Source: an uncultured Nitrososphaerota archaeon
GTDB lineage: Archaea > Thermoproteota > Nitrososphaeria > Nitrososphaerales > Gagatemarchaeaceae
Length of the DNA stretch: 64,000 nucleotides
Assembly: GCA_963718895.1 (NCBI GenBank)
Contig: CAVRAG010000004.1
Coordinates: 224,001-288,000, forward strand
Direction of reading: 5' to 3'
The notes beneath the pieces are model-generated. The model had not been told where the DNA came from and did no database searches. It worked only from the letters and a program-made list of their open reading frames with translations. The translations under genes were made by a program, and so were the position numbers. Positions 8,774-57,409 of this stretch are shown here, piece after piece (position 1 is the stretch's first letter; each line of letters opens with the position of its first letter).

Positions 8774-9052
8774 TTGAAGCGAGTAGTGCAGGTGGCGATA
8801 GGCCTAGGTGCGACAGCCTTCGTCTTGGGCCTCTTCCTTTTCCCGGTCGTGCCTGTGACGTTCGAGATAGCTTGCACTAACGACATGACGGGCTGTCCCC
8901 ATCTCCAGAATTTGGGTTCCGCCTCGATTACCTACTCGTTCTTCGGCGTCGGCGCGGTCCAAGTGCAAGATTACTACGGAGGCCACGCGTATTGCCTAAT
9001 GCACGGGAGTCCCAGTACCGTGTGCGGCATACCCCTCATTCTTCAGCGATGA
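8774..9052 (+). CDS. Small variable-loop membrane protein, family member 1
   Basis: MKR..TM..PVVP-loop-SASITYSFFGVGAVQV..GHAYCLMHGSPSTVCG; promoter motif at 8721. Confidence 0.7.
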   Translation: MKRVVQVAIGLGATAFVLGLFLFPVVPVTFEIACTNDMTGCPHLQNLGSASITYSFFGVGAVQVQDYYGGHAYCLMHGSPSTVCGIPLILQR

Positions 9053-9067
9053 TGGAGAGCCATGGCC

Positions 9068-9349
9068 ATGAAGCGAACGGCGAAGTTGGCTCTGGGCCTG
9101 GCGGCGGTACTGGTTGTCTTGGGCCTCTTCCTGCTTCCGGTTGTGCCGATTACGGTCTCTTGGGGTTGCGAGGGCACTTTCGCTCCGACTTGTTTCACTT
9201 CTAGTGCTTCGGCCTCGGTGATGTACGCCTACTCTGGTATCGGGGCCGTTCAAGTACCTGTACTGGGTGAGCTAGGCGGACATACGTACTGTCTAATGAA
9301 CGGCAACCCAGGTACGATGTGTGGCTACACTATGCAGCGAATGGGTTAG
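9068..9349 (+). CDS. Small variable-loop membrane protein, family member 2
   Basis: Tandem paralog; SASVMYAYSGIGAVQV..GHTYCLMNGNPGTMCG. Confidence 0.7.
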   Translation: MKRTAKLALGLAAVLVVLGLFLLPVVPITVSWGCEGTFAPTCFTSSASASVMYAYSGIGAVQVPVLGELGGHTYCLMNGNPGTMCGYTMQRMG

Positions 9350-9576
9350 ACTGTCTCTGCCCCGGAAGTGGGTTGTTTGGTTGCCTTTGTCTTAGACCAG
9401 CGCGCTTATCGAGAATTCTTCGAAACTGGCGTGAGAACCATCTTTGCTCAGAGCATAGTAGCAAGCAAGTTGATAGGTCGTGCTAGCGGTCACGTTCGCG
9501 ACCCCTCTCGGCCCGCTCGGTCCGGAAGCAGCGGGACGCGTCGCGAGATAACATGGTCTATAGCCTATTCAAATCT

Positions 9577-10533
9577 TTATTTCGAACCGATTAGCACAAG
9601 GGGAACCTCGGTCGGAATATTAGTTTCTGCTAGTTTCAATGATTGGTCATCAGCCCCCATGATGCCGGAACTGACTGAGGGTGGACTCGGCCCGGTATGG
9701 TCGGTTCCCCCTTCGGATGGCGGACTAGATTCCCACACGTCGAAGAAGAGAATCCTAAACATTGCAACCAGGTTCCTGCTGTTGGTCCATATCGCCGCGG
9801 CATTCTTGGAATGGACCGATATCGATTCTTCTTTTTCAAAACCCAATATCATCTGCGATCCGTCAAAGATGACCATTCTGGCAGGCATCGTTCTCTTTGG
9901 TTGCCGGACTTCCGCATGGAGTCCTTTCAGATGTTTGGCCGTAGAGGGAACAATAGGAAGCAGAAGCTTCACGTCTACCCCTTCGTTCTTCTTATGCTCA
10001 ATACTCTCCAGAAATCCAGAAAGCGACCAGCGTGCTACGGAATGCTCAGTTCCGATAGCCAAAATCTCAGAGCCGGTCCGCTGCATGAGATCGCTATACT
10101 TTGCCAGAATTGCGTGCTCTCCGGTTAGTAGCTGTATTCTGTCACTCTCAATATCCTGCTCGTTGTTCTCCATCCTCAATTGACCGAGGCTAGAGGCAAC
10201 CTTCTCAAGCTGTGAAAGTGCAGCCTTCTGCTTTGTCACATCTTGGTCCAGCTTCTTTCTCTCTGTCTCTAGGAACTTCTCAAACGCCACGGCAGTGAAT
10301 ATCATTGGCCTGGTCATCGTTCCCTCCACCATTTGCCTCGTTTGCAACCTCTTCAGAGCGGCGTAAACATCGAATCTGTGGATCTTTAGGTCTGCAGCCA
10401 GTTGGCTGGCCTTAGAACCTCCGCTGATGAGTAGACTAAGATAGATATCAACGTCATGTCGACTCAGGTGAAATGACCTCAGAAGTCGAGCTGTTTCCTT
10501 GACATTCTTGTCCAGCGGGGCGTGATGGGGCAA
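9577..10533 (-). CDS. TrmB-family transcriptional regulator
   Basis: N-terminal TrmB HTH (LS..DVDIYLSL..ASQLA..IHRFDVYAALKRL..RPMIFTAV), coiled coil, C-terminal effector domain. Confidence 0.8.
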   Translation of the reverse strand: MPHHAPLDKNVKETARLLRSFHLSRHDVDIYLSLLISGGSKASQLAADLKIHRFDVYAALKRLQTRQMVEGTMTRPMIFTAVAFEKFLETERKKLDQDVTKQKAALSQLEKVASSLGQLRMENNEQDIESDRIQLLTGEHAILAKYSDLMQRTGSEILAIGTEHSVARWSLSGFLESIEHKKNEGVDVKLLLPIVPSTAKHLKGLHAEVRQPKRTMPARMVIFDGSQMILGFEKEESISVHSKNAAAIWTNSRNLVAMFRILFFDVWESSPPSEGGTDHTGPSPPSVSSGIMGADDQSLKLAETNIPTEVPLVLIGSK

Positions 10534-10572
10534 TCTATTCCCGACTGACGTATCTCCCAGACATGTAAGTCA

Positions 10573-12477
10573 ATGCGTGAGAATTTTACACATACAATAA
10601 TTCATAAGATAGCTCCATGCAAGTTGCAAGTGACGCTGATTCTGCAAATGAATCGTGAGAGTCCTTCAGATGGCCGTACCGAAGTCCTGACAAATCAGAA
10701 GGAAGCAATTAACAGGGCTCTCGCAATCTTCGCTAGGAGTAGGACCGGGATTGACATCCTGACGGAAGAGTTAACCTCCCCTGAACCAGCTCCGTCGCAA
10801 GAGACAAACAGAGCAGCCGAGGCGTACTTCGACATCAAGAAGAGGGGAGGACGCCTCAGGATCCTGACGAGGATAGACGCGGAGGATGTCGCGTACTGCA
10901 AAGAGCTGATGAAGAGGATAGAGGTTCGTCATCTTGATGATGTAAAGGGGAACTTTGCCGTCAGCGACAGCGAGTACATGTCTTCTCCCGGCAGTGCAGC
11001 CTTCCAGCCCGGAGCCATGGTCATGGTCATCTACAGCAACGCCAAACCCGTGGTCGAGCAGAATAGGGTCGTGTTCGAGTCTCTCTGGAGCAGGGCTGAA
11101 CCGGCGGAAGAGCGAATCAGGGAGATCGAGGAAGGCACCCTTCACCCTAAGATCGAGGTGATACGCGCTCCTCACCAAATCCGAAGGCTGTATCTCGACC
11201 TGATCAAGCAGGCGAAGGCGGAAATCCTGATGATCGTGCCGACCGCCAACGCCTTCCATCGCCAGGCGAGGATAGGGGTGGTCGAGGCTCTGCAGGCAGC
11301 CGCATCTGAACGGGGGGTGAAGGTCAGCATAGTCTCCCCTAACTCTGTTGTTCAGGAGTCACTCGAGACCCTGAGCAAGGCGGTTCAGGCGAAGGTTGGT
11401 GCAAGACTGATCGAACACAGGCGCATTCTGGAAGCCAAGACGCCAATCCCGGTTACCATCCTCATTGTCGACAGGAGAGCCTCTCTCGTCATCGAGCTGA
11501 AGGACGACTCTCAGCGAGACTTTGACAAGGCAAACGATGTTGCCACCTACTCCACCAGGAACTCGACGGTAACGGCGAACGTCAGGTTCTTCGAAAGGAT
11601 GTGGGAGGACGTCGAGCTCAGGGAGAGGGAAGGGGCCGTCCTGGAGAAGGAGAAACGCATCAGGAAGACTGCGGAGCTCCTGCAGGACATACTCTCCCAC
11701 GACATAAGGAACTACAACCAGATATCCAGGACCAGCGCCGAGATGCTTCAGGGCAGCCTCGAAGGGAACGCCAAGGTGCTGAGCGAGGCAACGACGCTCG
11801 TCGACGCAATCATCAAGGAGACGGGTCAGTCGAGCGAGCTCAACCAGAAGGCACAGAGACTGAGAGTGGGCCTGAGCGGTAACCTGAAGGTCCTGAACGA
11901 TGTGAACGGTCTCATAGATGGCATCGTCAAGGCGACCGAAGGCTCGACCAACCTGATCGACAGGGCGAAGAAGCTGGGTCGAGTGATCACGCAGGACGAA
12001 ATCCAACTACGCCCTGTTGACCTCGAAAGCTCGATAAGAAGGTCGATAGCGCTGGTAACAGCATCCCACCCGGACAGGAGGATCAACCCGACCTTCTCGG
12101 TGGAGAAGGGCGCGCAGGTCGTCGCCGATGACATGCTGGAAGAAGTATTCACAAACATACTGTCAAACTCGGTCAACTACACCGAAAAAGACGAGGTGCC
12201 GGTCGAGATCGAGGTGGAGGGAGCGACCCTCGAGGGGAAGCCCGGGACGTACTGGAAGATAATGTTCACCGACCAGGGGAAGGGCATACCGGAGTCGCTA
12301 AAGGAGCAGGTGTTCGCGCGCTACCTGAAGACAGCCAGCGGGACCGGGCTCGGATTGTCCATAGTTTACGCCCTCGCGGTTGAGAGGTATTCCGGTAAAG
12401 TGAAGCTCACGAACAGAGTGGAGGGAGACCACACGAAGGGGACAAGGATAGAACTATGGCTTCCAAGAGTGGCTTGA
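10573..12477 (+). CDS. Cytoplasmic sensor histidine kinase with two TrmB/PLD-like input domains
   Basis: H-box ILSHDIRNYNQ, N-box EVFTNILSNSVNY, G1 DQGKGIP, G2 GTGLGL. Confidence 0.9.
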   Translation: MRENFTHTIIHKIAPCKLQVTLILQMNRESPSDGRTEVLTNQKEAINRALAIFARSRTGIDILTEELTSPEPAPSQETNRAAEAYFDIKKRGGRLRILTRIDAEDVAYCKELMKRIEVRHLDDVKGNFAVSDSEYMSSPGSAAFQPGAMVMVIYSNAKPVVEQNRVVFESLWSRAEPAEERIREIEEGTLHPKIEVIRAPHQIRRLYLDLIKQAKAEILMIVPTANAFHRQARIGVVEALQAAASERGVKVSIVSPNSVVQESLETLSKAVQAKVGARLIEHRRILEAKTPIPVTILIVDRRASLVIELKDDSQRDFDKANDVATYSTRNSTVTANVRFFERMWEDVELREREGAVLEKEKRIRKTAELLQDILSHDIRNYNQISRTSAEMLQGSLEGNAKVLSEATTLVDAIIKETGQSSELNQKAQRLRVGLSGNLKVLNDVNGLIDGIVKATEGSTNLIDRAKKLGRVITQDEIQLRPVDLESSIRRSIALVTASHPDRRINPTFSVEKGAQVVADDMLEEVFTNILSNSVNYTEKDEVPVEIEVEGATLEGKPGTYWKIMFTDQGKGIPESLKEQVFARYLKTASGTGLGLSIVYALAVERYSGKVKLTNRVEGDHTKGTRIELWLPRVA

Positions 12478-12965
12478 CCGTCCCGGAGGCCATCCTTCGG
12501 ACTGGCTCAGGCCTCGCTAGGGCATCGGACGAGCATCCCGATCAATCGGATTCAATCGGACAGCACGTGCAGTCTGGAGAAGCAGCCCAAGGAAAGGGAA
12601 AACTGGTCGCCAGAGGAATCGCGATTGCAGAGGATGAATCAAACCTGTCTTCGCTGTTCTCGATGCTGATAAGGAGCCTTGGATATCGCGTGGAGTTCGT
12701 CGCCGATGATGGGAATCAGATGGTCCACGCCGTACTGGAGGAGGGCATCCATCCAGACCTCATACTCATGGACTACCGAATGCCCGTTATGAATGGCCTG
12801 GAGGCAGCAGCGAAGATAAAGGAGGCGAGGCCCTTAATCAAGATAATCATAGTGACCGCCGACGACTCGGTCAGGGGAGAGGTTACCGCCGCAGGGCTGC
12901 TCTTCATACAGAAGCCCTTCTCGATACAGGCGCTCGCCAAGATTCTCGAGGACGTTCTTCACTAA
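12456..12965 (+). CDS. Stand-alone response regulator receiver (true start probably near 12567)
   Basis: IAIAEDE, PDLILMDYRMPVMNG, VTA, FIQKPF. Confidence 0.9.
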   Translation: MASKSGLTVPEAILRTGSGLARASDEHPDQSDSIGQHVQSGEAAQGKGKLVARGIAIAEDESNLSSLFSMLIRSLGYRVEFVADDGNQMVHAVLEEGIHPDLILMDYRMPVMNGLEAAAKIKEARPLIKIIIVTADDSVRGEVTAAGLLFIQKPFSIQALAKILEDVLH

Positions 12966-13160
12966 TCCGAGGCGCCCGCTGGGGGAAGGCGAACTCGCAT
13001 AGGACCACCGTAGTTCATCACTTGAGCCGTCGAGTCATCTTGCCCAGGCCGCGTCACAGGTTCTCAATGAGGCGTTCAACCTCAGCGACGGAGAGGAGAA
13101 GTTCATCATTGACGCCAAGATGGGTCAAGGGGTATCGAACGAAGACCCTTTGCGGCTAGC

Positions 13161-13502
13161 TTGATATCCCCGGGTTCACCCGTGGGGGTGGCTAGCAAGT
13201 TGGTGTTGGACCCACTGGAGGCATTGATCATCGCCGTCCCTGTGGGAGCCGTGGTCATCGTCGCTTTCTTCGACTGGCTCTACCCGAAGCTGCAGCAAAG
13301 GAGGTACTGGAGGTTCATTGAAGCGTGGACGGCCTTCTGGCTGGCCGCGGGAGTCGTGGGTCTGGTCCTCGGCTCGGTCACGATTGGCATCGGCCTGGTC
13401 ACTGCTCTCGAGTACTTCCTCGTGGCGCAGGTCGCTTCTCTGGCTTTGGCCACCGTTGTCTTCAGGTTGCAGACCCGCCGTCCGTCCCCGAAATCTCCTT
13501 AG
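13161..13502 (+). CDS. Small integral membrane protein
   Basis: Three hydrophobic segments. Confidence 0.5.
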   Translation: MISPGSPVGVASKLVLDPLEALIIAVPVGAVVIVAFFDWLYPKLQQRRYWRFIEAWTAFWLAAGVVGLVLGSVTIGIGLVTALEYFLVAQVASLALATVVFRLQTRRPSPKSP

Positions 13503-13993: not shown

Positions 13994-14005
13994 CTTCCCG
14001 CTGAC

Positions 14006-14338: not shown

Positions 14339-14366
14339 GCTACCACCATCGGATGCCTTCTCTGAA

Positions 14367-14732: not shown

Positions 14733-14826
14733 TTGTGATTTCTATGATGGAAACGATAACTGCCGGGTAATAAACATTTCACGAAAATAGGAGCGATTAT
14801 TAGGGTATTCGTTAACGGCATCTCCG

Positions 14827-18665: not shown

Positions 18666-19057
18666 GGCATTTAGAGAGGTATTCTCCTATTTAGCGCTTC
18701 ATAACATTGTTCTAGTCTCGGTCTTGTTGCGTCGGTTTGGATGATGCTGCTTGGCAGCAAGTTGACGCCTCGCAGGCAAAGGAGCCTGCGATGGGGAGGT
18801 GCAGATTAGATGGGAATGATGGATGACGCCTACGACTGGTAGGAGCGGCCACAATCGTGGTAATCGGCCTCTTCATCATCGCGGAGCTGGTTGTCAGTCT
18901 TGTTGCGCAAAAACGGCCTGTTTGGAGACCTGTTGATCGGTGGAGGCGAACTGGCAGCTATAGTCGCGGCGGCAAAGGAAATCTTCAATCGGTAACTTAC
19001 GACAGTCGACAGAACCGTTCGGACAAAGGCGTATATCACGTGGCCCGGCAATAGATT

Positions 19058-19387
19058 GTGAGCTCGTTGAAGCGAAGGGCGAAGCTGGTCTTGAGCCTGG
19101 CCGGGGCGCTCGTCATCCTAGGTCTCTTCCTGCTCCCGGTGGTACCCATCTCGGTCGCCTCTGTCGTCACACTGGACTGCGGCACTCCCTCTGGGCCGAT
19201 CAGCTGTACGTCGTACTATCCCCTTCAGGGAGGATCCGTCTCAGCTTCGGTGATGTACGCATACTTCGGTGTGGGCGCGGTCCAGATCCCGAGCGCGAGC
19301 GGACACACGTACTGCCTGATGTACGACAGCCCTGGTACCATGTGCGGCTTCGCCATGGAGCAGATGAGCTACGAGCCCCATGGCTGA
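19058..19387 (+). CDS. Small variable-loop membrane protein, family member 3
   Basis: SASVMYAYFGVGAVQI..GHTYCLMYDSPGTMCG; promoter motif at 19017. Confidence 0.7.
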   Translation: MSSLKRRAKLVLSLAGALVILGLFLLPVVPISVASVVTLDCGTPSGPISCTSYYPLQGGSVSASVMYAYFGVGAVQIPSASGHTYCLMYDSPGTMCGFAMEQMSYEPHG

Positions 19388-19931
19388 CGCTCCCGACCTC
19401 AAGAGGAGGCGCAGAAGGATCGTCCTCGCTTCCGCGCTTGTCCTCGTCATCGCTGCAGCGGGCCTAGGAATCTACGTGTTTGAGCAAGCGACATGTTCGT
19501 GGGCCTGTGGAGGCATCCCGAGCCCGGTGATCCAGAGCGCCCAGGCGAGCACTTCGCTGGCAGAGAGCAGCTGCCAGTTCGGGAGAGCGACCGACATCTC
19601 GTGGAACGTGGTGTGCGCCGTCTATGCCAATGGGGGAGACTCTGGTATGGTCACCCTGACCGTGGCCGATCACGGACCGGGAGACGCAGGTTCTGACATC
19701 GACTTTCTCGTGTATTCCTCCGAGCCGCAGTACATCAACTTCACTGCGATTCCCGCCTGCGCCCACACGACAGCTCCCCCTTTGAATGACGAAGCCCCCT
19801 GCCCTGTCTCCGGCAGCTCGCCCCAGGCCTTCCAGTTCGCCTTCGCCACGGCCCAGAGCTATGGCGCCTCTTCTCTCAGGGAACTGGTCAGCGTCACCAT
19901 TGTGATGTACCAGACTTGCTGCTTTCCCTAG
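19380..19931 (+). CDS. Membrane-anchored Cys-rich extracellular protein
   Basis: KRRRRR plus TM helix, 8 Cys; overlaps the upstream gene. Confidence 0.6.
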   Translation: MADAPDLKRRRRRIVLASALVLVIAAAGLGIYVFEQATCSWACGGIPSPVIQSAQASTSLAESSCQFGRATDISWNVVCAVYANGGDSGMVTLTVADHGPGDAGSDIDFLVYSSEPQYINFTAIPACAHTTAPPLNDEAPCPVSGSSPQAFQFAFATAQSYGASSLRELVSVTIVMYQTCCFP

Positions 19932-21197: not shown

Positions 21198-21368
21198 AAG
21201 AACACCTAGGAAGAGATGTCCAGTGGGCTATCGGTTGCCTTTTGCCACATTTGGTATGACGGCCAGCGAATGTATTCTACCCTCCTAGGCTTGCTTGCAT
21301 GTCCAACTGGCATACAGTGGGTGTTCGGACAAAGGTGTATTACAATGGGGACGGCTAATGCGACTGAC

Positions 21369-21686
21369 ATGAAGCGAGCATCGAAGTTGGCTCTGGGACT
21401 GGCGGCCTTAGTGGTTGTCTTGGCTCTCTTCCTGCTTCCGATTATACCTATTCAGGTATCACCTACGGATACACCCTCGTGTGCGACTAAACCTCCCGTT
21501 GATGTGTATCCCTGCACCGTGTTCTTCGAGGGTTCGGCCCGAGCCTCAGTGATGTACGCTTATCTTGGTATGGGGACAGTCCAGATAGCAAACTCCAGCA
21601 GCTATGCATACTGTCTCGTGTACGGCAATCCCGGCACGATGTGTGGTCAGCCAGTGCAGAGAATGAATCAGATGACGGCTCCATGA
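21369..21686 (+). CDS. Small variable-loop membrane protein, family member 4
   Basis: MKRASKLALGL..PIIP-loop-ASVMYAYLGMG..YCLVYGNPGTMCG; motif at 21323 supports ATG 21369. Confidence 0.7.
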   Translation: MKRASKLALGLAALVVVLALFLLPIIPIQVSPTDTPSCATKPPVDVYPCTVFFEGSARASVMYAYLGMGTVQIANSSSYAYCLVYGNPGTMCGQPVQRMNQMTAP

Positions 21687-21910
21687 AACGAAAATCGGCA
21701 GTGGTGCTGACGATCGGGTTCACACTGATCTTCGTCACTCTTGTTCCCGCTGTCTACAACTCGAGCTATCAGCACGGCGTCATCGGCATAGGAATCGGCG
21801 GGAGTGTCTGCTTTGGCTCACCAGACCAGTTTCGTTCGATATCTCTAGTGGTCTTCGGTGGTGGCGCGGCCGTCCGCTGGGGGACCTACGTTCCTTTCAC
21901 TTTCTGTTAG
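21683..21910 (+). CDS. Small membrane protein, distant variable-loop family member
   Basis: MKR+TM+P, loop, SISLVVFGGG; ATGA overlap with the upstream gene. Confidence 0.55.
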   Translation: MKRKSAVVLTIGFTLIFVTLVPAVYNSSYQHGVIGIGIGGSVCFGSPDQFRSISLVVFGGGAAVRWGTYVPFTFC

Positions 21911-22218: not shown

Positions 22219-22710
22219 TTAAGGTGCAACACCGAGACAGGCTGTCGCGCTGCCATATGGCGCACTAGCGCTGTTCGATTGGGTTGCGGCTCCATAACTC
22301 ACCGAGACGGTCAACGTACCGTCGCTGGAGTCGAATTTGTTCGCCCAAGCGCATAGGTATGACTCTCCAGTTGGATTCCAGCTCGGAATGACGAATGTAG
22401 CGTTTCCACTAATACTAGGTATGCACTGATTCACTGTGAGAGTGCCAAGACCCTCCTTTAATGAGGAGAAGCCCTGTATCTTTGAACTCGACTGTCCAGC
22501 GTAATTGACTTGGACATAGAAGTTGCTCGCGCTTTGGTTTTGGGGCCCTGCGGATGCGGATGTTCCAAGTGTACAGGTTCCAATAGCAATGATTGTACCC
22601 GTAGTTGTACGAGATGTAAGTGCGATGACGGTTATTGCGCCGACTACAATGACTGTGAGCGCAATTGTGGCAATAACGACTTTTCCAATTGCCCGTCTTT
22701 GCGTTATCAC
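22219..22710 (-). CDS. Pilin-like secreted protein (class III-like signal peptide)
   Basis: MITQRRAIG plus hydrophobic helix; four Cys; promoter motif at 22741. Confidence 0.6.
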   Translation of the reverse strand: MITQRRAIGKVVIATIALTVIVVGAITVIALTSRTTTGTIIAIGTCTLGTSASAGPQNQSASNFYVQVNYAGQSSSKIQGFSSLKEGLGTLTVNQCIPSISGNATFVIPSWNPTGESYLCAWANKFDSSDGTLTVSVSYGAATQSNSASAPYGSATACLGVAP

Positions 22711-38707: not shown

Positions 38708-39115
38708 CTAGCCCACCATCAGAAAGTCGTTCGCTGTCAATATTCTGGTTCCGTCGACCTTCCCAAGAGAGAGCAGGTGTTCATCGCCAGAAACTATGAA
38801 GTCTGCTTTTGCAGCCACAGCGCTCTCCAGAATCACGTTGTCTGCTGGATCTTCCTTGACAACATCCAGTCTTGCGGGAGTATCGACGAAAATCGCGATG
38901 GCTGACACAAGAGCCTTGAATCTCGATTTCTGTTCTTCCTCGAATTCGAACTTTGGATAGTCGAGCACTCTCGAGAGCTCATCGAACTGAGCCTGGGAGA
39001 TGAAGAGCTCAATATCCCCGCTGACTATCTGCGCCAGTATCTTGTGCGGCTTCCCGTTCCACCCTAGGGCAGAGATGAGTATGTTTGTGTCGAGGACTAC
39101 TTTGCTCTTGCCCAC
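38708..39115 (-). CDS. vapC: PIN-domain toxin
   Basis: VVLDTNILISAL, DPADNVILESA, IVSGDEHLL. Confidence 0.9.
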   Translation of the reverse strand: MGKSKVVLDTNILISALGWNGKPHKILAQIVSGDIELFISQAQFDELSRVLDYPKFEFEEEQKSRFKALVSAIAIFVDTPARLDVVKEDPADNVILESAVAAKADFIVSGDEHLLSLGKVDGTRILTANDFLMVG

Positions 39116-41026: not shown

Positions 41027-41263
41027 ATGAAACGGGAGGAGACTACGGTTACCCGGAAATTCCAGACCACGATCCCAAAAGCGATAAGGAAGAACCTGGA
41101 AGTCAAGGCCGGTCAGAAGGTGACCTGGCATATCGTGAAGAGCCTCGTAGTCGTTGATACGCACAAGAGGGTGAAGGACCCGGTGGCGTTCCTCACATCT
41201 CAGACGAAACTCAACCTGGACGCCACAGCACTCGTCAGGGAGACCAGAGAAGAACTCACTTGA
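41027..41263 (+). CDS. vapB: AbrB/MazE-type antitoxin
   Basis: TVTRKFQTTIPKAIRKNLEVKAG. Confidence 0.85.
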   Translation: MKREETTVTRKFQTTIPKAIRKNLEVKAGQKVTWHIVKSLVVVDTHKRVKDPVAFLTSQTKLNLDATALVRETREELT

Positions 41264-41688
41264 AGTACCTGGACACCAACGTCATAGTCTACGCGATAGA
41301 GAACCATCCAAAGTACGGAGAGAGGTGCAAGAGAATCCTCGAAGACGTTGAGAGCGGGAAGCTGAAAGTCTCTTGTTCGATGTTGGTCCTGGTGGAACTG
41401 ATAAACGTCCTGAAGAAGCTGAACCGAGTTCTCTCGAAGCAAAAGAGGAAGGAGCTCGAACTTGAGGACAATGTTGATGCGGTGTTGTCGTTGGGAATTA
41501 CCTGGATTGACTTGGACTTTCTCATAGTAGAGAGAGCGTCCACTTACTCTTTCGATATCAACGGCGTGGACTACATCCACGCCGCGTCCATGGAGGTCAA
41601 CTCGATAACTGAAGTTCTCTCGGCGGATGCAGATTTTGACAAGGTTCCGATGGTCAAACGCCTGGATCCGTTGGGCTATGAAGGCTAG
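41260..41688 (+). CDS. vapC: PIN-domain toxin
   Basis: YLDTNVIVY, DYIHAAS, SADADFD. Confidence 0.9.
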   Translation: MKYLDTNVIVYAIENHPKYGERCKRILEDVESGKLKVSCSMLVLVELINVLKKLNRVLSKQKRKELELEDNVDAVLSLGITWIDLDFLIVERASTYSFDINGVDYIHAASMEVNSITEVLSADADFDKVPMVKRLDPLGYEG

Positions 41689-49765: not shown

Positions 49766-49835
49766 TCAGTAAGGACTTCGAAAGCCTTCGAGGGGCTCAT
49801 TGTTATCGATAGTTATTTCCGAATACCGCATCTCG

Positions 49836-50436
49836 CTACTTTCTGAATAGCCGGAACCGAACGAGCGCGTAGACGTAGACGGGTAGCGTGAACGCGACCG
49901 CGCTGACCCCGATGGCTCGAAAGGCGGCGAAGTAGAAGCCGGCGGCGTCCAAGAGGGGCGCTATGCCGACGACCCACATTGAAAGGGGCAATGAGGCCTT
50001 TGGCATAGAAGAAGACGCCGAACAGCGCCCCTGTGGCAAGGAGCACGGTCGCGCAGGCGACCAGCGAGTACAGGGTCCTCTTCCGCACCGCGAGAGCAGA
50101 CGCGATGAACTTCATGATCTGGTACGAGATTATCGGAGAGGAAATCAGCAGGGCCAGCATCACCGAGGCCGTCACGTAAATCTCGGTCGGCACCCCCGGG
50201 CTCCCAGCGATAAGGGTCCAACCGGCCGGCAGGACCTCGCTCTTTATGCCCGAGACGAATAGTGAGACGAGTGGGGAATAGGAGCCGCCTGAAGTCAGCA
50301 TCAGCACAGGGTTGGGTATCAAGAGGAGCGCCGCGAGGATCGCCGAGAATGCAAGGAAGGGCGCCCTGAATGTACTGAACGAGCCGATCTGTTCAGCGAC
50401 CCAAGGTCGCGAGTTCATGTGTCTTGGAGCCACCAT
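49836..50436 (-). CDS. Truncated TatC-like membrane protein (frameshift near 49980)
   Basis: LIAGSPGVPTEIYVTAS..SSPIISYQIMKFI..GALFG resembles the TatC TM1-3 region; C-terminus in ORF 49836..50039. Confidence 0.55.
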
Positions 50437-50480: not shown

Positions 50481-50921
50481 TCATGCCCCCATAGGTTGGA
50501 AGGGTGGCGAGCACCCGAACGTCACCATGAACTCGACCGAGGGAGGAAGCGCGATGTTGTACTCAGTCCCCCAGCACCAGAGGTATTCCGTGACCGATTG
50601 TAGCTGAGTGACGCCGGAGCAGCCGGCGCCACTGCCGTTGCAGATGGAGCCACTGTCCTGACCGTTCGGGAGCGTTCCCGTTCGCACGTCGGGGCCGAAG
50701 AACACCAGGAAAATCCCGATGATTATGCAGGCCGCGATGATCTTGCTTCTCCTCCATGGCTTCATCTTCCTGGTGACGAAGTCAAGACTGAACATGAGAC
50801 CGCTCAGAAGAAAGAGCATTACAGAGGTGAACCCGGTATTGAAGTAGCCGAAAACTGCGGAGACAAAGAGAATCGAGGCAGCAACGAACAGTGCCGAGCC
50901 GACCTTCACAGCTAGGCCCAT
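50481..50921 (-). CDS. Three-TM protein with C-terminal Cys loop (distant variable-loop family)
   Basis: TM-P-loop(CNGSGAGC)-SVTEYLWCWG; motif at 50995. Confidence 0.55.
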   Translation of the reverse strand: MGLAVKVGSALFVAASILFVSAVFGYFNTGFTSVMLFLLSGLMFSLDFVTRKMKPWRRSKIIAACIIIGIFLVFFGPDVRTGTLPNGQDSGSICNGSGAGCSGVTQLQSVTEYLWCWGTEYNIALPPSVEFMVTFGCSPPFQPMGA

Positions 50922-51063: not shown

Positions 51064-51651
51064 ATGGGGGCTCCGCTTCCCGCTACGGCCCACAGGGTCA
51101 AGGTCGCGCTCACCAGTCTGTCCGCCCCGTTCCTCGTCCTGTTCCTCGTACCCGTCAACCTCCAATCGGTCCTCTTCGGTGGGGCGAGCGATGTGCCTCT
51201 GGCCTCGCTCTTCACGACGTGGGTCTGGAGTCAGTTGCTGCCACCGGGATGGGTTCTGACTAGTCCGGGCGGGCTCGGCGAACCTGCCGTGATCTTCGCT
51301 GAGGCTTCCCTGGCGCTCACTCTAATCATAGGGTACCCCCTCATCGCCTTCCTGCTCTTCGAGAGAATCGTCCGGTACGGAGGCGGTCGACGCCGGAGGA
51401 CGGTTTACACGCTGACATCGCTAGCCTCGGCCGCGTTCTTTGTCGGCGTGCTGTTCGGCGCCTTCTTCATGGCAAAGTTCTACATCGCCTCGCTCCCTCC
51501 GTACTTTGGGGCTGCTGCGGTGTTCGACTCTGGGGGCTTCTACCTGGCCGGGCTGGGCGTCGTATGCATCCTCGCTCTCGTCTCGACCCTACCGTTCGTC
51601 CTGTTGGGGGTCGCGCGGTTCCGGAGTTCCACGCTGTTGCGAATCCCCTGA
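51064..51651 (+). CDS. Truncated TatC-like membrane protein, paralog of 49836..50436
   Basis: LLPPGWVL..EP..IFAEASLAL..YPLI..RRTVY..FDSGGFY shared with the paralog. Confidence 0.55.
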   Translation: MGAPLPATAHRVKVALTSLSAPFLVLFLVPVNLQSVLFGGASDVPLASLFTTWVWSQLLPPGWVLTSPGGLGEPAVIFAEASLALTLIIGYPLIAFLLFERIVRYGGGRRRRTVYTLTSLASAAFFVGVLFGAFFMAKFYIASLPPYFGAAAVFDSGGFYLAGLGVVCILALVSTLPFVLLGVARFRSSTLLRIP

Positions 51652-51806
51652 TTTGTTAGATTCGTGCCGCTACCGCCGTCATGATAATTTTCTCTAGGTG
51701 AAGGATCAAGGGCGGCGCTTGGTGACCGGCCCGCCGTAGTCCTCCAGCCCGTTCGGACAAAGGTGTATTACAAAGTGCATCCGGCTGCAGACGAAAGGCG
51801 ATCGGC

Positions 51807-52100
51807 TTGAAGCGATGGGTGATTCTTAGTCTAGGCCTGGTGGCTGTGTTGCTCGTCGTGGTCCTCTTCCTGCTTCCGGTTGTGTCGATCGGTGTGGAAG
51901 CAGCCACAGGTACACCAAACTCTTCCGTCGAACGCGTGACCTCAGCTTCGGCCTCGATGATGTACGCCTACTTCGGCGTGGGAGTAGTGCAGGTACCGCA
52001 CCCGTATGACAGTGGTCATACATACTGCTTCATGTACGGGAACCCCGGTACGATGTGCGGCTTCGCCATGCAGCGGATGAACCAGATGATGGCTCCGTGA
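51807..52100 (+). CDS. Small variable-loop membrane protein, family member 5
   Basis: SASMMYAYFGVGVVQV..GHTYCFMYGNPGTMCG; motif at 51751. Confidence 0.7.
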   Translation: MKRWVILSLGLVAVLLVVVLFLLPVVSIGVEAATGTPNSSVERVTSASASMMYAYFGVGVVQVPHPYDSGHTYCFMYGNPGTMCGFAMQRMNQMMAP

Positions 52101-53272
52101 GTTCTCCGGAAGCCGAGAACATTCCTGACTCTGACGGGTGGACCTATTCGGCTCTGATCCTCCTCCTCACGATTCCCCTTTCGGCGGTTGTGTCGAATGC
52201 GTTTCCTCTGAGCGGTGTCATCGCATCGGTGACCGGAGCCAACAGCTATGACCTCGGTCCGTACTTCGTCCTCTGGCAGCTGGCCTTCACCGTCGTGATG
52301 CTCTACGTCTTCTACAAAGTCGGTGAGAGGGTGGACTTCCCCGGGACATACCGCCGCCTTGCGTTTATGGCGTTCGTTGGGGCGCTCATCGGGAACCTCC
52401 CGGGCTTGTACGTCTACAACTTCAACGTCTACAACAACGGCCCCTTCATTGGATTCGGTCAGGAGTGGGGCTACGGCTTCGGCTATGTCACGAGCTTCGG
52501 TATCGCGGAGCCGAGCTCCCTGATCGACCTCCTCACCGCTGCTGTCGCCTCGTTCATGATCCCGCTGGCAGGCCTGGCGCTCGCCCACTTCAGGTTGCAG
52601 TTCCTCTCTCCGGCCGGCGATGTGAGCCCCGGCGAAGGCCCGAAGAAGACCCGGGGTCCTCTCTCGCCTTTCGTCGTAACCTTCCTTGTGGTCGTGGCTT
52701 TCCTGCCGGTCACTCGAATTGCATCCAGCCTCTTCGCGACCGCACCGCCCCCTACTTTCCCCTATCGGTTCACCATCCAGCAGCTCATCCCCGGGTACGC
52801 AGGCTTCCTGGTCTATCCCTTCCTTCTGCTAGTAGCTTTCTACGCGATGGGGGCCACGCTGGACATGGGCCTGTGGGGCGCCCGGAGCTTCAGGAGGTTC
52901 GCGCTCTCCGTGTTTGAGGGTGCGGTGGCGGGGCTGTTCGTCATCGATGTGATTGATGGGTGGATCGAGAGTTCTTCGTTGGCTGTTGTTCTGAGCCCAT
53001 ACAATCTGGCAAGGTTGGGCGCGTTTCTCCTCTCCGGCGGCGTCATGGTGGTCATCCTGGCTTTCGCCGCCCTATCCCTCGGGTACGTTGCGAGGAACAG
53101 ACCCCATCTTACTGCTGCTGAGGGACTTCCAAACTCTTGCCTAGACCGTGAAGTAGGCGAACGCAGAGTGCCCCCATTCGTCCTCCGCCAGCACCGTGTA
53201 CGTCCCCTTCGGGAGGGTCGTGAAGGCCCCTCCCTGGCTCCAATACCCGGTGACCGCCCCCCACGAAGATGA
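52097..53272 (+). CDS. Polytopic membrane protein with internal duplication (3' end uncertain)
   Basis: About 8 TM helices; VFYKVG and AFYAMG halves. Confidence 0.6.
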   Translation: MSSPEAENIPDSDGWTYSALILLLTIPLSAVVSNAFPLSGVIASVTGANSYDLGPYFVLWQLAFTVVMLYVFYKVGERVDFPGTYRRLAFMAFVGALIGNLPGLYVYNFNVYNNGPFIGFGQEWGYGFGYVTSFGIAEPSSLIDLLTAAVASFMIPLAGLALAHFRLQFLSPAGDVSPGEGPKKTRGPLSPFVVTFLVVVAFLPVTRIASSLFATAPPPTFPYRFTIQQLIPGYAGFLVYPFLLLVAFYAMGATLDMGLWGARSFRRFALSVFEGAVAGLFVIDVIDGWIESSSLAVVLSPYNLARLGAFLLSGGVMVVILAFAALSLGYVARNRPHLTAAEGLPNSCLDREVGERRVPPFVLRQHRVRPLREGREGPSLAPIPGDRPPRR

Positions 53273-53988
53273 TGTCCGTCCGGTCGACGCGCTCCCCGAC
53301 ATGCACGTCTGCTGGTTGCAGCCGTACGAGTCAGCCATGTGGCTCAGGGGCTGGAAGGCGAACCCTGTCGGGTTTCCGTACCCCAGATACAGCGGGCAGC
53401 TATAGGTGACTCCCGGGTTGACAAGATCCAGGAACTTGGCCGCGGTGACGTTCGAAGAGGTGTAGTGCCCCTCGGCTATTGCGAAGCCGACTGTGAAGTC
53501 ATTCACCCAGCAGGGGGCGCCGTCCAGGTAACTGAGCGCAACGGGCCAGTCGTTCGCGGCCGTGACGTTGTTCGTTGAAGCGAGTGTGTTGTAGACGTCG
53601 GCCATGATGCTCACGGCAGCGCCGCTCGCGTTGACGGCCAGCTGCAGCTTGAGGGCATTCGCGGAGCCGCTCAGGCTGGTTGTGGTCGCAGTCTGCGTGC
53701 TCGTCGCAGTGGTGCAGGATACAACTGGACCGCCGACTCGGGCTGGATGACCGCGCTGAGTAGGAGGCCACCCGCGACCGGGGAGTAGAACACGTTGGAA
53801 GGGGAAATCGTAGTCGTGGTTACGTCGGTCACAGTTGTGGTGGACGTCGTCGTTGCGGTTGCGGTCGTACTAATGGTAGTGGTCTTAGCTCCTCCGATTG
53901 CCACGAAGAGGCTCGCAGATATCAGCACCCCCGCTATCACTATCGCCGCAGCGATCACCACGTAGCTCGGGTTGGCCTGGCCGCTCAT
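53141..53988 (-). CDS. Surface protein (DEWG-domain family), frameshifted near 53720
   Basis: TM and Thr tract in ORF 53671..54006; domain ending YTVLAEDEWGHSAFAYFTV in ORF 53141..53614. Confidence 0.6.
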
Positions 53989-54002
53989 GGGAGCCGGACC
54001 GC

Positions 54003-54248
54003 TCAAACGAACCTCACCAGCGGCCCGTTCGGCTCGGAGACGACGACGACTCCGTGATGGACCAGCGCGTAGGAAATCGAGCCGTGCAGGGGATACAGAA
54101 GTTCAAACGGGCAGAAGCACTGAGGACAGGAGACTCCGCAGGGGGTGGACTGGCCCATCGGGAATATCGGGACGAGGAGTACAAAGAGAAAGACTGCGAC
54201 GGCGGCTATGGTGATTGCAATCGGACCGACCGCTCTCCGATGATGCAC
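54003..54248 (-). CDS. Small membrane protein with Cys-rich loop (distant variable-loop family)
   Basis: HRRAVG plus TM plus PIFP-CGVSCPQCFC-SISYALVHHG; motif at 54277. Confidence 0.55.
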   Translation of the reverse strand: MHHRRAVGPIAITIAAVAVFLFVLLVPIFPMGQSTPCGVSCPQCFCPFELLYPLHGSISYALVHHGVVVVSEPNGPLVRFV

Positions 54249-54317
54249 GGCAACTCGGCTGGTTAGAGTGCGATTGGTGATTAATAGTTTTGTCCGAACG
54301 CCGAAGAGGAAAGATTG

Positions 54318-54459
54318 ATTGTTTCCCCAGCTTTTGGGGGCGAACCACGCCGGGGCGCCGGGGCCCTCTCCCTCCGTCCGAGCTGGGTCTTGTTCTAGAT
54401 GCGGAAGAGACCTGAAGCCATGCAAAGGGGTCATTGCGCCTCCGCCGGTGCACTTCATC
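54318..54459 (+). repeat. Array repeat copy G
   Basis: Matches 39465-39600. Confidence 0.85.
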
Positions 54460-54497
54460 AGCGCGTTGTTCTACGCTCAGCGGCGGCCAATCAGCCT

Positions 54498-54722
54498 CTA
54501 GAGCAAATCGATGAATTGTTCCGTGGTGAGTCCTGAATCCTTGATGATTGCTCTGAGCGTACCCTTTGCGATTTCTTTGTGGTTTGGGATGGTTAGACGG
54601 CGATGAGGCGCTTCCTTGTGCCTCAGAATCATGTGGCTCCCGGTCTGATGGTCGAGTGAATATCCGGCCTTCGAGAGGGCCTTCACGACTTCCCTTCCTG
54701 AGACTACGGGAAGCTTAGGCAC
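54498..54722 (-). CDS. hicA: HicA toxin
   Basis: SGREVVKAL..GSHMIL..IPNHKEIAKGTLRAII. Confidence 0.92.
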   Translation of the reverse strand: MPKLPVVSGREVVKALSKAGYSLDHQTGSHMILRHKEAPHRRLTIPNHKEIAKGTLRAIIKDSGLTTEQFIDLL

Positions 54723-54927
54723 TGACCTCTACCACTTCCTCGTCTATTGAGGGTGGTATGGGCTCGCGGTGCTTCTTCAGACTTGCGAGATAACCGTTGA
54801 TGGCGTCCTTGATGTTCGCCAGCGCGTCGGCCCTCGTCGCTCCCTGAGAAACGCACCCCGGTAACGACGGACACCTGGCTACGAAGACTCCGTCCTCGTC
54901 CTGTTCGATGGTTACCCGGTACTTCAT
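54715..54927 (-). CDS. hicB: HicB antitoxin
   Basis: IEQDEDGVFVARCPSLPGCVSQGAT..ALANIKDAI. Confidence 0.92.
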   Translation of the reverse strand: MKYRVTIEQDEDGVFVARCPSLPGCVSQGATRADALANIKDAINGYLASLKKHREPIPPSIDEEVVEVSA

Positions 54928-55004
54928 GTTCTAGAATTCCAGACTGGCGGGTTAAAATCCTTTGGTCTGCTGGTGCACTTCTCACTGTGATGCGCGTGAG
55001 AGCA

Positions 55005-55123
55005 GTTCATCCTGACTTCGTCGGGCACTTCATCCAGGTAAATCAGCTATGGCAGGAGGGCCGAGGTGGGTACTCCAATTGCTCTCCGGCTTTTACGTGC
55101 GAACCCCGCCGCGCCCCGATGCC
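55005..55123 (+). repeat. Array repeat copy H
   Basis: CATCCAGG..GGTGGGTACTCCAATTGCTCTCCGGCTTTTACGTGCGAACC. Confidence 0.85.
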
Positions 55124-55134
55124 GATGTACATTA

Positions 55135-55395
55135 TCACCGCAAAAGCTGGCTCAGGTCGAGGATCTCGACTGCCACCGCTTGATCGCCGTGGTCTTCGTA
55201 GAAGAAGACTGCCAATCCGTCCTTTGATGGCTCCCCGACCGGCTTCTCCACGTGTCTGAACCTGAGGTACAGGTCGTCGTGTTCGCCGTAATCCACGGCC
55301 AGAACGGTCCTGGGGAGCTTCACCTTGTATCTCTGCTCCAGCTTCGACAGTATCTTCCTCAGGTCCAAGTCCAAGATTGTCGTTCTGCTCGTCAT
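55135..55395 (-). CDS. DUF2283-like putative antitoxin
   Basis: DYGEHDDLYLRF...AVEILD. Confidence 0.65.
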   Translation of the reverse strand: MTSRTTILDLDLRKILSKLEQRYKVKLPRTVLAVDYGEHDDLYLRFRHVEKPVGEPSKDGLAVFFYEDHGDQAVAVEILDLSQLLR

Positions 55396-55700
55396 TGTGC
55401 CCAGTACCTCCTGTTCTTCCTCTTCTCGTTGATTATGAATGCCGTCTTAATTAAGCCTCTATCTGCTTCTGCGACTCTGTAGATCACGACGAGGAAATGG
55501 CTCTTGTCGATGCGCTTCAAAGCGTGGCACCCGCCGCGCTCGTCTTTGTGCAGCTCATCAGGGTCGGATACCGCCTGCATCAATACGCTCGGGTCGGTCC
55601 CCACCTCCGGGTGCCTGAATCGCACGTGGAGCCAGTCGTCTCTCGTCAGAGTGATCTTCTTCCCGTCTGGGGTTGTTGCGACCGCGGGAAGGCCTTCCAA
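55392..55700 (-). CDS. RelE/ParE-superfamily (BECR-like) putative RNase toxin
   Basis: ITLTRDDWLHVRFRHPE..SDPD..LVVIY..LIKTAF; ATGA overlap with the downstream gene. Confidence 0.65.
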   Translation of the reverse strand: MEGLPAVATTPDGKKITLTRDDWLHVRFRHPEVGTDPSVLMQAVSDPDELHKDERGGCHALKRIDKSHFLVVIYRVAEADRGLIKTAFIINEKRKNRRYWAQ

Positions 55701-55768
55701 GTCTGGTCTTCTGCGATTCCAATGCCGGGTGCGGCTATAAGCGCCTTGTGTCTTCCGGGGTTACTTTC

Positions 55769-55812
55769 TGATTGAGAGTTTTTTCCGAACCGCGTCAGGT
55801 CCCGAGGCCCTC
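55769..55812. repeat. Chimeric site: promoter motif joined to the array repeat tail at CGAAC (copy I)
   Basis: TGATTGAGAGTTTTTTCCGAAC (19/22 match to 54278-54299) followed by CGCGTCAGGTCCCGAGGCCCTC. Confidence 0.75.
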
Positions 55813-55900
55813 TTCAGCGGTAGCAAGCGCGACAAGCATGGGATCGAAAGGGTTGCGAGGACCATGGTCCAAGTGCGGCTTCTCCAGCGAAGGGGCCCCG

Positions 55901-56479
55901 CTAGGAGATCGTGGCACTCCCAGACCAGCCGCCGCCACAAGCAGTGATTACCTGGATTCCGTTGATGGCATCATTCACGCTTCCCCCAAAACCGGGAGCG
56001 ATGCCGGAGCGGGACCCGTTCACCGCGCCTGAAGGAAGGTTCAGCTCGACCGTAGCCGTACCGCCTCCGCAGATGGGGCCACTGAACTGATAGATGTGTC
56101 CCTCGTACGGGACGTTGAACGTGAAGGACCACCCGGCGAGGTCAGAAGATGGCACCGAGACGTAGCCGGTCGAGTTCGTCACGAAATCCCAGTTGCCGAG
56201 TATGGTACTCGTGGGTTTGGACGGTGTATTCTCCGAGGTACCTATCGGACAGAGCTCGTACAGCCAGCCCTTGACGCCCAGACCGCTCACCGGGTAGGCG
56301 GGCGTTGTCGTTACGATGTGGACGTACAGATTATCCCCCGGAGTGAACACACATTCGATGCTCGGTCTGGAGTAGGTCGAGTAGATGGAATAGCTCGCGC
56401 CCGCTACGACCAGAACCAGGACAAGGACGAGGGCGAGCATGACCCGTCGAGAAGGCCGTTTCTTCTGTGGCGCTTCCAT
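55901..56479 (-). CDS. Membrane-anchored extracellular protein
   Basis: Basic N-terminus, TM helix, four Cys; motif at 56503. Confidence 0.6.
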   Translation of the reverse strand: MEAPQKKRPSRRVMLALVLVLVLVVAGASYSIYSTYSRPSIECVFTPGDNLYVHIVTTTPAYPVSGLGVKGWLYELCPIGTSENTPSKPTSTILGNWDFVTNSTGYVSVPSSDLAGWSFTFNVPYEGHIYQFSGPICGGGTATVELNLPSGAVNGSRSGIAPGFGGSVNDAINGIQVITACGGGWSGSATIS

Positions 56480-56609
56480 GTCTCGCGCGCCCACTGATGA
56501 GAAGATTTACGCTTTTGTCCGAACGGTTCTACTAAGTCTTCGTCATTCGAGGCCTGACTTTAGGGCCGTTAACTGTGGTCAGTTATCGGGTCGTTACTCG
56601 AATCATCAA

Positions 56610-57053
56610 TCAGGGAGGGACTATTATTGTGATTGGGGTATTGGGATAGGACACTGCGGCGTTGGATATGGTTACGGCTGCGAACGTGACCGAATACACC
56701 CCCGGCGGGATTGACTGTAGGTCCATCAGGAACACAGGTAAGGTCTGATTGAACCCCATCGTCGTCGTACCGTCGGCCACATAGATCGCGGTGTCTCCCT
56801 TGAAGGTAGCAAAGACCACGACGGTCAAGGGAGGCTCAGGCTCCTCGCTCGTGACGTTGACTCTGATTCCTGAATAATACCCCAGAGTGACATATTGGGC
56901 GCTATTCGAGTTGAAGCAGACTCCACAGAGAGTTATGATGTGCTGAGTGCTACCGGATACTGCAGGACCACTTGCCAAGGCGGGAATCAGCGCCGCTGCT
57001 ATCACAATCGCTGCCGCGATGACGCGATAGCTTCGAACCGGCCGAGAGCTCAA
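56610..57053 (-). CDS. Secreted or membrane-anchored protein
   Basis: Signal-like helix, Ig-like PPGVYSVTF. Confidence 0.55.
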   Translation of the reverse strand: MSSRPVRSYRVIAAAIVIAAALIPALASGPAVSGSTQHIITLCGVCFNSNSAQYVTLGYYSGIRVNVTSEEPEPPLTVVVFATFKGDTAIYVADGTTTMGFNQTLPVFLMDLQSIPPGVYSVTFAAVTISNAAVSYPNTPITIIVPP

Positions 57054-57157
57054 ACCGAAGCGCCTTGAGACGTCGCGCCCGACTTCGTGATTAATAGCTA
57101 TGCCTCAGTGATTGGAATCCAGAACATTCGTGGCGGCTTCTGGCAAAGGGAGGAGCG

Positions 57158-57409
57158 TCAATCGGTCACTGGTATTGGCGGGTTACATGTCATGTAGATG
57201 GACCCCTTCCAGAGGGAATCACCGAATCCAAGAGTAGCGCAACTGACCGAACTATAGATAGCATTTGAGGCACCGTTGCCCTTTGTGCTTGTAATGCAAC
57301 TACCGCCGCACGATTGACCAGTTTTCACCACTGGAGCGAGGGAGAAGACAAGTAGGGATACACCCACAATCCCGACGACCAAAACAACGGCTTTTGACTG
57401 GCGCTTCAT
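57158..57409 (-). CDS. Small membrane protein, distant variable-loop family member
   Basis: MKR+TM+PVV-CGGSC loop-SVSCATLGFG; motif at 57436. Confidence 0.55.
   Translation of the reverse strand: MKRQSKAVVLVVGIVGVSLLVFSLAPVVKTGQSCGGSCITSTKGNGASNAIYSSVSCATLGFGDSLWKGSIYMTCNPPIPVTD

Follow-up and report, generated by a model that had tools for sequence, protein, structure and literature searches.

The stretch of 64,000 nt analysed here (G000:C4:224001-288000, referred to as the window) belongs to the genome of a Gagatemarchaeum-like, non-ammonia-oxidising Nitrososphaerales archaeon, a Group I.1c thaumarchaeon, and the assembly of this genome (G000) comprises 3.13 Mb in 11 contigs and is 80.5% complete. 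A preliminary description of the DNA had listed five close paralogs encoding small membrane proteins, and all five are present with the translations as quoted, the other four proteins being 48-62% identical to the one encoded at 9068 (alignment A1). Four of the positions given there (8774, 9068, 21369 and 51807) hold and the fifth, 19058, is better moved to 19067, as the start codons are best set at a conserved (A/T)TG AAG CGA, being TTG for 8774, 19067 and 51807 and ATG for 9068 and 21369. The genes all lie on the plus strand. The first two, 8774..9052 (92 aa) and 9068..9349 (93 aa), form a tandem pair with the start of the second 16 nt after the stop of the first, and are followed by 19067..19387 (106 aa), 21369..21686 (105 aa) and 51807..52100 (97 aa). 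When a hidden Markov model (HMM) built from the five paralogs was run on all 43,803 six-frame open reading frames (ORFs) of at least 40 aa in G000, the five were found with E values between 4e-46 and 4e-42 (8774, 4e-42; 9068, 2e-44; 19067, 1e-43; 21369, 4e-42; 51807, 4e-46) and the next match had an E value of 2e-7.

The five proteins share a common plan with an N-terminal MKR, a transmembrane (TM) helix, the motif LFLLPVVP, a segment that cannot be aligned and a C-terminal ASxxYxxxGxGxVQ…YC…C-G. The variable loop segment between LFLLPVVP and the ASxxYxxxGxGxVQ block is from now on referred to as the finger. Alignment A1 contains 20 invariant columns, namely K2, R3, L11, L20, F21, L22, P24, A49, S50, Y53, G57, G59, V61, Q62, Y74, C75, P81, T83, C85 and G86. 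The loop sequences quoted in the preliminary description are correct, and the fingers read EIACTNDMTGCPHLQNLGS in 8774 (DNA positions 8864-8920), SWGCEGTFAPTCFTSSAS in 9068 (9158-9211), the long ASVVTLDCGTPSGPISCTSYYPLQGGSVS in 19067 (19157-19243), SPTDTPSCATKPPVDVYPCTVFFEGSAR in 21369 (21459-21542) and EAATGTPNSSVERVTSAS in 51807 (51897-51950), the last one lacking Cys and carrying an N-x-S/T sequon. We propose to define the family by a K/R-containing n-region, the TM helix, LFLLPVVP, the finger, ASxxYAYFGxGAV and YC-x9-CG, a set of features found in five of five window genes. Among 68 distinct sequences S50, Y53 and G59 are invariant and F21, L22, P24, V61, Y74, C75, C85 and G86 are at least 90% conserved. 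It had been noted that the Cys of the loop are either paired or absent, and this extends to the whole family since two Cys occur in 51 of the 68 fingers, none in 16 and a single one in only one, with a spacing of 2-10 residues. An N-x-S/T sequon is present in 8 of the 16 Cys-less fingers as compared to 6 of the 51 with two Cys.

Nearly all differences between the members are carried by two regions, the β1-β2 hairpin, i.e. the finger (14-31 residues), and a shorter β3-β4 loop (5-16 residues), and the C-terminal part contains the nearly invariant Cys pair of YC-x9-CG. An AlphaFold2 model of the 9068 protein, made from a 68-row alignment, had a predicted local distance difference test score (pLDDT) of 85.7 and a predicted template modelling score (pTM) of 0.70, with a helix at residues 3-22, a strand at 24-32 (PVVPITVSW), the finger at 33-43 (pLDDT of this block 63), a strand at 44-50, a helix at 51-56 and strands at 58-64, 72-78 and 89-92. 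The order of elements is the same in the model of the 19067 protein (pLDDT 70, pTM 0.46), where the 29-residue finger forms a long hairpin of strands 30-40 and 43-52 and the finger Cys 38 and 47, counted from the sequence, are placed one on each strand. This order of strands is consistent with the finger as a hairpin distal to the membrane. As strand 1 emerges from the membrane right behind the TM helix, we infer from the models that both the tip of the finger and the second variable loop face away from the membrane, with the invariant YC-x9-CG loop near it. A basic n-region followed by a hydrophobic stretch of about 20 residues indicates, as judged from the sequences, an anchor with the N-terminus inside. 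Prediction of a homodimer from two copies scored 0.00 in both runs, which were made without controls, and speaks neither for nor against binding. A copper site made up of H72, C75, M77 and M84 was considered and discarded, the His and Met not being conserved across the family.

Searches in larger collections gave 64 matching clusters among 5.8 billion clustered proteins, all of them unnamed or annotated as "hypothetical protein" and two with an organism label, in both cases Nitrososphaerales, and 45 matches at E<=1e-3 among 1.84 billion representatives. Among the 97 genomes from the taxonomic family, eight had matches at E<=1e-10: G000, five of the 22 other genomes of the same genus and two of the 55 genomes of another genus, the latter two matching positions 2-68 of the model only, and the 19 remaining genomes, representing eight genera, gave no match at this threshold. 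Full-length members were restricted to six of 23 genomes of one genus, so that counting copies per genome, as the preliminary description had suggested, gave two to six (G000 five, G001 six, G002 five, G011 three, G007 two and G010 two). The best match in Pfam had an E value of 0.027 and 14.7 bits compared to a cut-off of 31.7, and the best in NCBIfam an E value of 0.008 and 16.2 bits compared to a cut-off of 50, and no family member had a match at E<=0.1 in PADLOC or PHROGs. Structural searches were likewise negative, with no match at E<=0.001 using Foldseek against the PDB (best 0.73) or in the viral folds of BFVD, no chain out of 48,161 with Z>=5 using VIA-align (best 3.8, a subunit of the poxvirus entry complex) and best feature scores of 0.87-0.89 in the ESM Atlas, which belong to unnamed bacterial clusters and lie under the useful range. 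The family is thus new to Pfam and NCBIfam and has no detectable fold relative. As far as searched, the sequences probably represent a lineage-specific, undescribed family of single-pass, type-II-anchored membrane proteins of 90-107 aa, confined to a subset of one genus. Extensive gene duplication has been reported in Gagatemarchaeum (PMC10640624), and the parts of that account concerned with gene duplication do not mention this small membrane family. The family adds a defined protein group and a testable domain model to an abundant uncultured lineage of archaea from acid soils.

To describe the variation of the finger, 75 sequences were cut into TM, finger and C-domain, three others of the 78 collected (P0065, P0069 and P0070) being left out since they lack the anchor pattern. 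In the resulting 2,775 pairs the identity of the fingers is at noise level (~18%) when the scaffolds are less than 70% identical, has a median of 81% at a scaffold identity of 80-90% and is at least 84% above 90%, and none of the pairs combines a near-identical scaffold with a different finger. By single linkage at least 35 types of finger can be told apart. In sequences of one type it is conserved to the same degree as the remainder of the protein or better, as in one pair with identities of 0.86 for the finger, 0.50 for the TM helix and 0.71 for the C-domain. The ratio of nonsynonymous to synonymous substitution rates (dN/dS, Nei-Gojobori), which had been proposed as a region-wise check, was determined for nine pairs of the same type from different genomes and ranged from 0 to 0.54 for the finger, 0.08 to 0.32 for the C-domain and 0.14 to 0.47 for the TM helix, the finger being below 1 in all nine. 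In ten clusters of 90% identity, containing 55 sequences, 30 of 279 columns were variable in the TM helix, 20 of 230 in the finger and 31 of 472 in the C-domain, i.e. the finger is not more polymorphic than the TM helix. A tree made from the scaffold only (68 rows, 70 columns) recovered 9 of the 13 finger groups with several members as clades with 97-100% support, and required 15 changes of finger label where the minimum is 12 and the mean after shuffling 32. The synonymous distance (dS) of the C-domain between the five paralogs of G000 ranges from 1.07 to saturated. That fingers of different paralogs cannot be aligned would follow from a dN/dS of about 0.4, tolerated insertions and deletions and saturated synonymous sites, and no special mechanism is needed.

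The preliminary description had compared the loop to the complementarity-determining regions (CDR) of antibodies and proposed to look for the reverse transcriptase of a diversity-generating retroelement (DGR) elsewhere. A search of G000 with PF00078 gave two genes only (C8:1204372-1208734), both encoding 584 aa with the domains RVT_1, GIIM and HNH of group II intron maturases, and none of DGR type. The two maturase genes (L043 and L044) are adjacent, and a few kb away small TM-plus-Cys genes are clustered (C8:1212-1221 kb). When the DNA of the five fingers was run against G000 with blastn-short only self matches appeared, all others being 17 nt or shorter with E values of at least 0.39, and neither a template nor a silent cassette was seen. 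Of the proposed architecture, the constant scaffold with one variable and usually disulfide-closed loop stands. The CDR-like, hypervariable part does not; the loops are kept between species, the clusters of 90% identity contain no hot spot, and conservation across species with no sign of diversification was the pattern that the description itself had named as speaking against it, so that on these sequence comparisons the hypervariability reading is rejected. The searches in PADLOC, PHROGs and viral folds gave nothing that bears on the suggested roles in adhesion, as a virus decoy or in self-recognition. The main result is in this sense negative, as the appearance of a constant scaffold with a variable loop does not indicate a mechanism generating diversity.

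The account we regard as probable is instead that of an ordinary gene family which diverged after old duplications and has one less constrained hairpin. The basic N-terminus (MKR..K) would be situated in the cytoplasm and the conserved TM helix of 20 residues would end in LFLLPVVP and lead into strand 1 of an extracytoplasmic β-domain, where the finger may be closed by a Cys pair of its own in three quarters of the members. The paralogs would be old, with scaffold and TM helix under strong purifying selection and the finger under weaker and still purifying selection combined with insertions and deletions, so that each type would remain stable across species as the lineages drifted apart. Occasional exchange of segments between members may add mosaics, with no programmed hypermutation. 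Each protein would act as a membrane-proximal recognition or adaptor module of the cell envelope, docked by its constant TM helix and base in the membrane or on a partner common to the family, with the finger binding a partner or ligand specific to the paralog. To this binding role we attach much lower confidence than to the architecture and the origin by duplication. Membership in a programme of the cell envelope is suggested because the genes share their promoter class, described below, with other membrane-anchored extracytoplasmic proteins.

A number of observations weigh against this account. The assembly is incomplete, and the part that is missing could contain a DGR or silent cassettes; the gene neighbours are not stable between species; the membrane-distal placement of the finger was deduced from the order of strands and not from coordinates; the segments used for dN/dS contain only 11-56 codons, which makes single values rough; and the scaffold tree, which has only 70 columns, does not recover the loop groups t0-t3 as single clades. 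To these come two loci that look like mosaics. The gene at 51807 and its counterpart in G001 (L026) both lie between the promoter motif and c4 (52160..53272, plus strand), a polytopic protein of about 370-400 aa with no Pfam match and a single copy in G000, and the flanks (promoter, TM helix, C-domain, tail and c4) have a DNA identity of 60-93% as compared to 37-50% for the finger, which differs by 15 nt in length and is of the Cys-less type in G000 and the Cys-pair type in G001. At the other locus, 9068 and a gene of the same type in G001:C90 share an identical run of 59 nt that spans the finger, the TM part is ~60% identical and the neighbourhoods differ, and dS is 0.08 in the loop compared to 0.94 in the TM part and 0.46 in the C-domain (permutation p <=0.0005). 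They may be explained if the fingers are exchangeable cassettes and conserved nucleotide blocks for LFLLPVVP and ASVMYAYFG serve as handles by which fingers or TM segments are shuffled among paralogs and strains, so that an exposed epitope would diversify slowly and in a combinatorial manner, e.g. under pressure from viruses. Similar signs are the unusual TM helix shared by P0017 and P0051 (0.85) with different fingers, the C-domains of P0006 and P0016 (0.88) joined to unlike fingers (0.07), and stretches of 26-34 nt within the conserved motifs in which different types are identical. However, most loop types agree with the scaffold tree, the permutation p is not robust to correction for 197 pairs, the identical runs sit where the protein is most constrained, several of the mosaic sequences are metagenome contigs and possibly chimeras of assembly, the c4 locus could also have arisen if different copies of a tandem pair like 8774/9068 had been lost, and no silent cassettes were found in G000. 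The two loci hint at exchange of segments on an evolutionary time scale, which we consider unlikely and nevertheless a live rival, or an addition, to divergence by duplication. Less likely again is that the fingers are exposed epitopes or receptor sites reshuffled by recombination at the flanking blocks and driven from an envelope promoter class (GTTCGGACAAA plus TATA); if true, this would be a slow, cassette-style surface variation in a soil archaeon, with a promoter class possibly read by a specialised transcription factor. A programmed, DGR-type hypervariable target has in its favour only the appearance of a constant scaffold with a variable loop, and its probability is close to nil, as the changes in finger length (14-31 aa) are not produced by DGR mutagenesis, the RVT_1 genes are maturases, there is no template-like copy and the loops are kept both between species and within clusters.

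Two further explanations concern the fate and the partners of the proteins, and both appear improbable. The N-terminus could be a cleaved secretion signal releasing free, disulfide-stabilised peptides of ~60-75 aa with a signalling or antimicrobial, archaeocin-like function, in which the paralog-specific finger would be the active or specificity part. The proteins are indeed small, mostly with two Cys pairs and many paralogs, several members have small residues behind PVVPI(T/S)V (e.g. VSWG, VSAG and VASV) and the window holds toxin-antitoxin genes, though these are unrelated in kind. But the hydrophobic stretch and LFLLPVVP belong to the most strongly conserved regions of the sequences, unlike in typical signal peptides, and this speaks against a disposable one; in the models PVVPITV forms strand β1 of the domain, the members have no -3/-1 cleavage pattern in common and no processing, export or immunity gene was found as a stable neighbour. 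The class III (pilin-type) motif of the FlaFind-style pattern, [KRDE][GA][ALIFQMVED][ILMVTAS]x3, occurs within the first 25 residues of 1 out of 75 sequences, and the consensus for twin-arginine translocation (Tat), (S/T)RRxFL, in the n-region of none of the 75, a plain RR being present in the first 15 residues of 12. Alternatively, polytopic membrane proteins or translocases could have these proteins as small accessory subunits, whose conserved TM helix would pack against a partner such as c4, c5/c6 or a TatC-like protein. The high conservation of the TM helix would fit, as would the position of 51807 between a TatC-like gene and c4, the recurrence of c4 after a family gene in G001 and of a TatC-like gene before one in G007, and the c5/c6 polytopic proteins encoded upstream of family genes in G001, G002 and G010. 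Each of these neighbours, however, accompanies only one or two paralog types, the neighbours of the same type differ between species and no such partner is found at the 8774/9068 and 21369 loci.

The combination of a constant and a variable part was also compared with that of known systems. Type IV pilin-like proteins of archaea and bacteria have a conserved N-terminal hydrophobic helix, a small β-domain, a variable loop and a C-terminal, disulfide-bonded "D-region", and the present family resembles them in its conserved N-terminal hydrophobic helix, small β-sheet domain, variation in one loop and Cys pair near the C-terminus. It differs in the near lack of the class III motif, in that the helix ends in a Pro-rich motif turning into a β-strand and in that the window showed no genes for pilus assembly. 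There were no solved pilins among the listed structural matches, the best of which had a Z of 3.8 in VIA-align and an E value of 0.73 in Foldseek. Targets of DGRs, such as variable proteins with a C-type lectin or Ig-like fold, also have a constant scaffold with a localised variable segment, whereas here there is no DGR reverse transcriptase, template repeat or adenine-specific pattern and the fingers vary in length and are stable between species. In the pilE/pilS cassette variation of the Neisseria type conserved blocks flank a variable segment as in this family, in which two loci look mosaic, but no silent cassettes were found in G000 and any exchange would be rare and on an evolutionary time scale. 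Also similar are other small TM-plus-Cys proteins of the same genome, namely the 54003 subfamily and the proteins at C7:468405 and C8:1535571, which share the promoter class and a module of the form K/R-TM-(L/F)xVP(V/I)x-Cys loop-GSxSYxxxxG and differ in lacking the YC-x9-CG hairpin or in having longer C-terminal regions.

When analysing the regions upstream of the core genes, a conserved motif, GTTCGGACAAAGG(C/T)GTAT(A/T) with the core TTCGGACAA, was identified 40-55 nt before the start of four of the five genes. It has the form GTTCGGACAAAGGCGTATAT at 8721..8745 ahead of the pair 8774/9068, where the core starts 52 nt before the TTG of 8774, and at 19017..19041 upstream of 19067, and the form GTTCGGACAAAGGTGTATTA at 21323..21347 upstream of 21369 and at 51751..51775 upstream of 51807, all on the plus strand, the last one being kept at the syntenic locus of G001. 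The sole exception is 9068, the second gene of the tandem pair, which lacks a separate motif. The genes at 54003 and 57158 are preceded at a similar distance by closely related forms, GTTCGGACAAAACTATTAAT and GTTCGGACAAGACTATTAGT (near 54298 and 57456, both on the minus strand). The consensus runs on into a TATA-like box and ATCA, and two sub-variants, AAAACTATTAATCA and AAAGGYGTATWT, can be discerned. In G000 there are 37 occurrences of GTTCGGACAA compared to about 6 expected, and 30 sites of the form GTTCGGACAAA, 29 of them with a downstream ORF of at least 60 aa. An N-terminal hydrophobic segment is encoded by 25 of these 29 ORFs, a share that is 11% downstream of random positions and 16% among ORFs of 150 aa or more. 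The number of sites is 12-16 in each of four genomes of the same genus, where the reversed pattern gives 0-1, and one in a genome belonging to another genus, where it gives two. In G001, G007 and G010 sites were found 45-52 nt upstream of family genes. The sequences point to a promoter type common to, and largely specific for, membrane-anchored extracytoplasmic proteins, the one positive lead on the biology of the family, and the motif could serve to predict an envelope regulon and to search for its transcription factor. The same motif accounts for P0134 (335 aa), the sole candidate for a longer fused form, which is no fusion since an upstream ORF is read through the promoter, its "RSDK" being the in-frame motif CGTTCGGACAAA.

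The preliminary description had placed four more distant members at 21683, 50481, 54003 and 57158, of which one is confirmed. The gene at 54003..54260 (minus strand; 85 aa as analysed) encodes a TM helix with LLVPIFP, a Cys-rich loop and GSISYALVHHGV and lacks the YC…CG hairpin. Its E value with the family HMM is 0.003, and an hhalign comparison of the family with the 54003 subfamily gave a probability of 97% (E 1e-10, 68 columns) and a direct search to a core member an E value of 2.5e-4; on this profile evidence the subfamily is homologous to the core family. The gene at 57158..57409 (minus strand, 83 aa), following a gene for a membrane regulator with the domains DUF7347 and HTH_20, is suggestive only (HMM E value 2.5, hhalign 68%). 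The other two are not supported, the small TM protein c23 at 21683..21910 (plus strand) with a probability of 9% over 15 columns only and the multi-TM protein c24 at 50481..50921 (minus strand) with 6%, as they share only the general TM-plus-Cys architecture with the family. A second pair of c23 and c24, arranged divergently, is found in G000:C7:463519-464468, where the copy of c23 seems to lack an in-frame N-terminal TM helix, perhaps owing to a frameshift or another start, and such a pair is also located near a family gene in G010 (L038). The N-terminal module heads two longer proteins as well, at C7:468405 (275 aa) and C8:1535571 (137 aa), a likeness at the level of the module.

Among the neighbouring genes, c10 (19380..19931, plus strand) encodes 183 aa with a TM helix, a Cys-rich ectodomain and no Pfam match, and its start overlaps the stop of 19067, an arrangement that recurs in G002 (L031) and not in G001 (L027). 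Directly upstream of 51807 lies a gene for a TatC-like membrane protein (51064..51651, plus strand), 34-36% identical to a copy on the minus strand (49813..50436; PF00902, E value 7e-10), and in G007 (L037) a TatC-like homologue is likewise directly upstream of a family gene. The two TatC-like paralogs are short (195-207 aa) and flank a multi-TM gene, and a canonical TatC is encoded separately at C7:173837-174523. In the G001 locus described above c4 follows a family member with a different finger, so that both links of 51807, to the TatC-like gene and to c4, recur in one other genome each and do not amount to a stable operon partner. An apparent c4 neighbour in G002 (L033) was dismissed as an alternative frame of the family gene itself. 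A link to winged-helix regulators, suggested by a helix-turn-helix gene close to several of the family genes, was also set aside, with about 11 genes of helix-turn-helix type among 85 ORFs scanned, by which adjacency is expected by chance.

The window is unusually dense in small winged-helix regulators (HTH_45, HTH_20, PadR, MarR, TrmB and DUF7347), some of which are membrane-anchored with extracytoplasmic domains, as at 57502-58569 and in the c7 and c8 families of relatives. The toxin-antitoxin genes of the window are located at 38708-39115, 41027-41688 and 54498-54722 and are of the types PIN_3, MazE-like with PIN, and HicA. Clusters c1 and c2 are large families of extracytoplasmic proteins that are rich in Ser/Thr and anchored by a TM helix, with representatives on the minus strand at 53671-54006, 22219-22710 and 4732-6210 and at many loci in relatives, and many members of c1 begin with ...SQPVRSYLVIAAAI(V/I)IAGVLISASLF, a strikingly conserved anchor found under the same promoter class.

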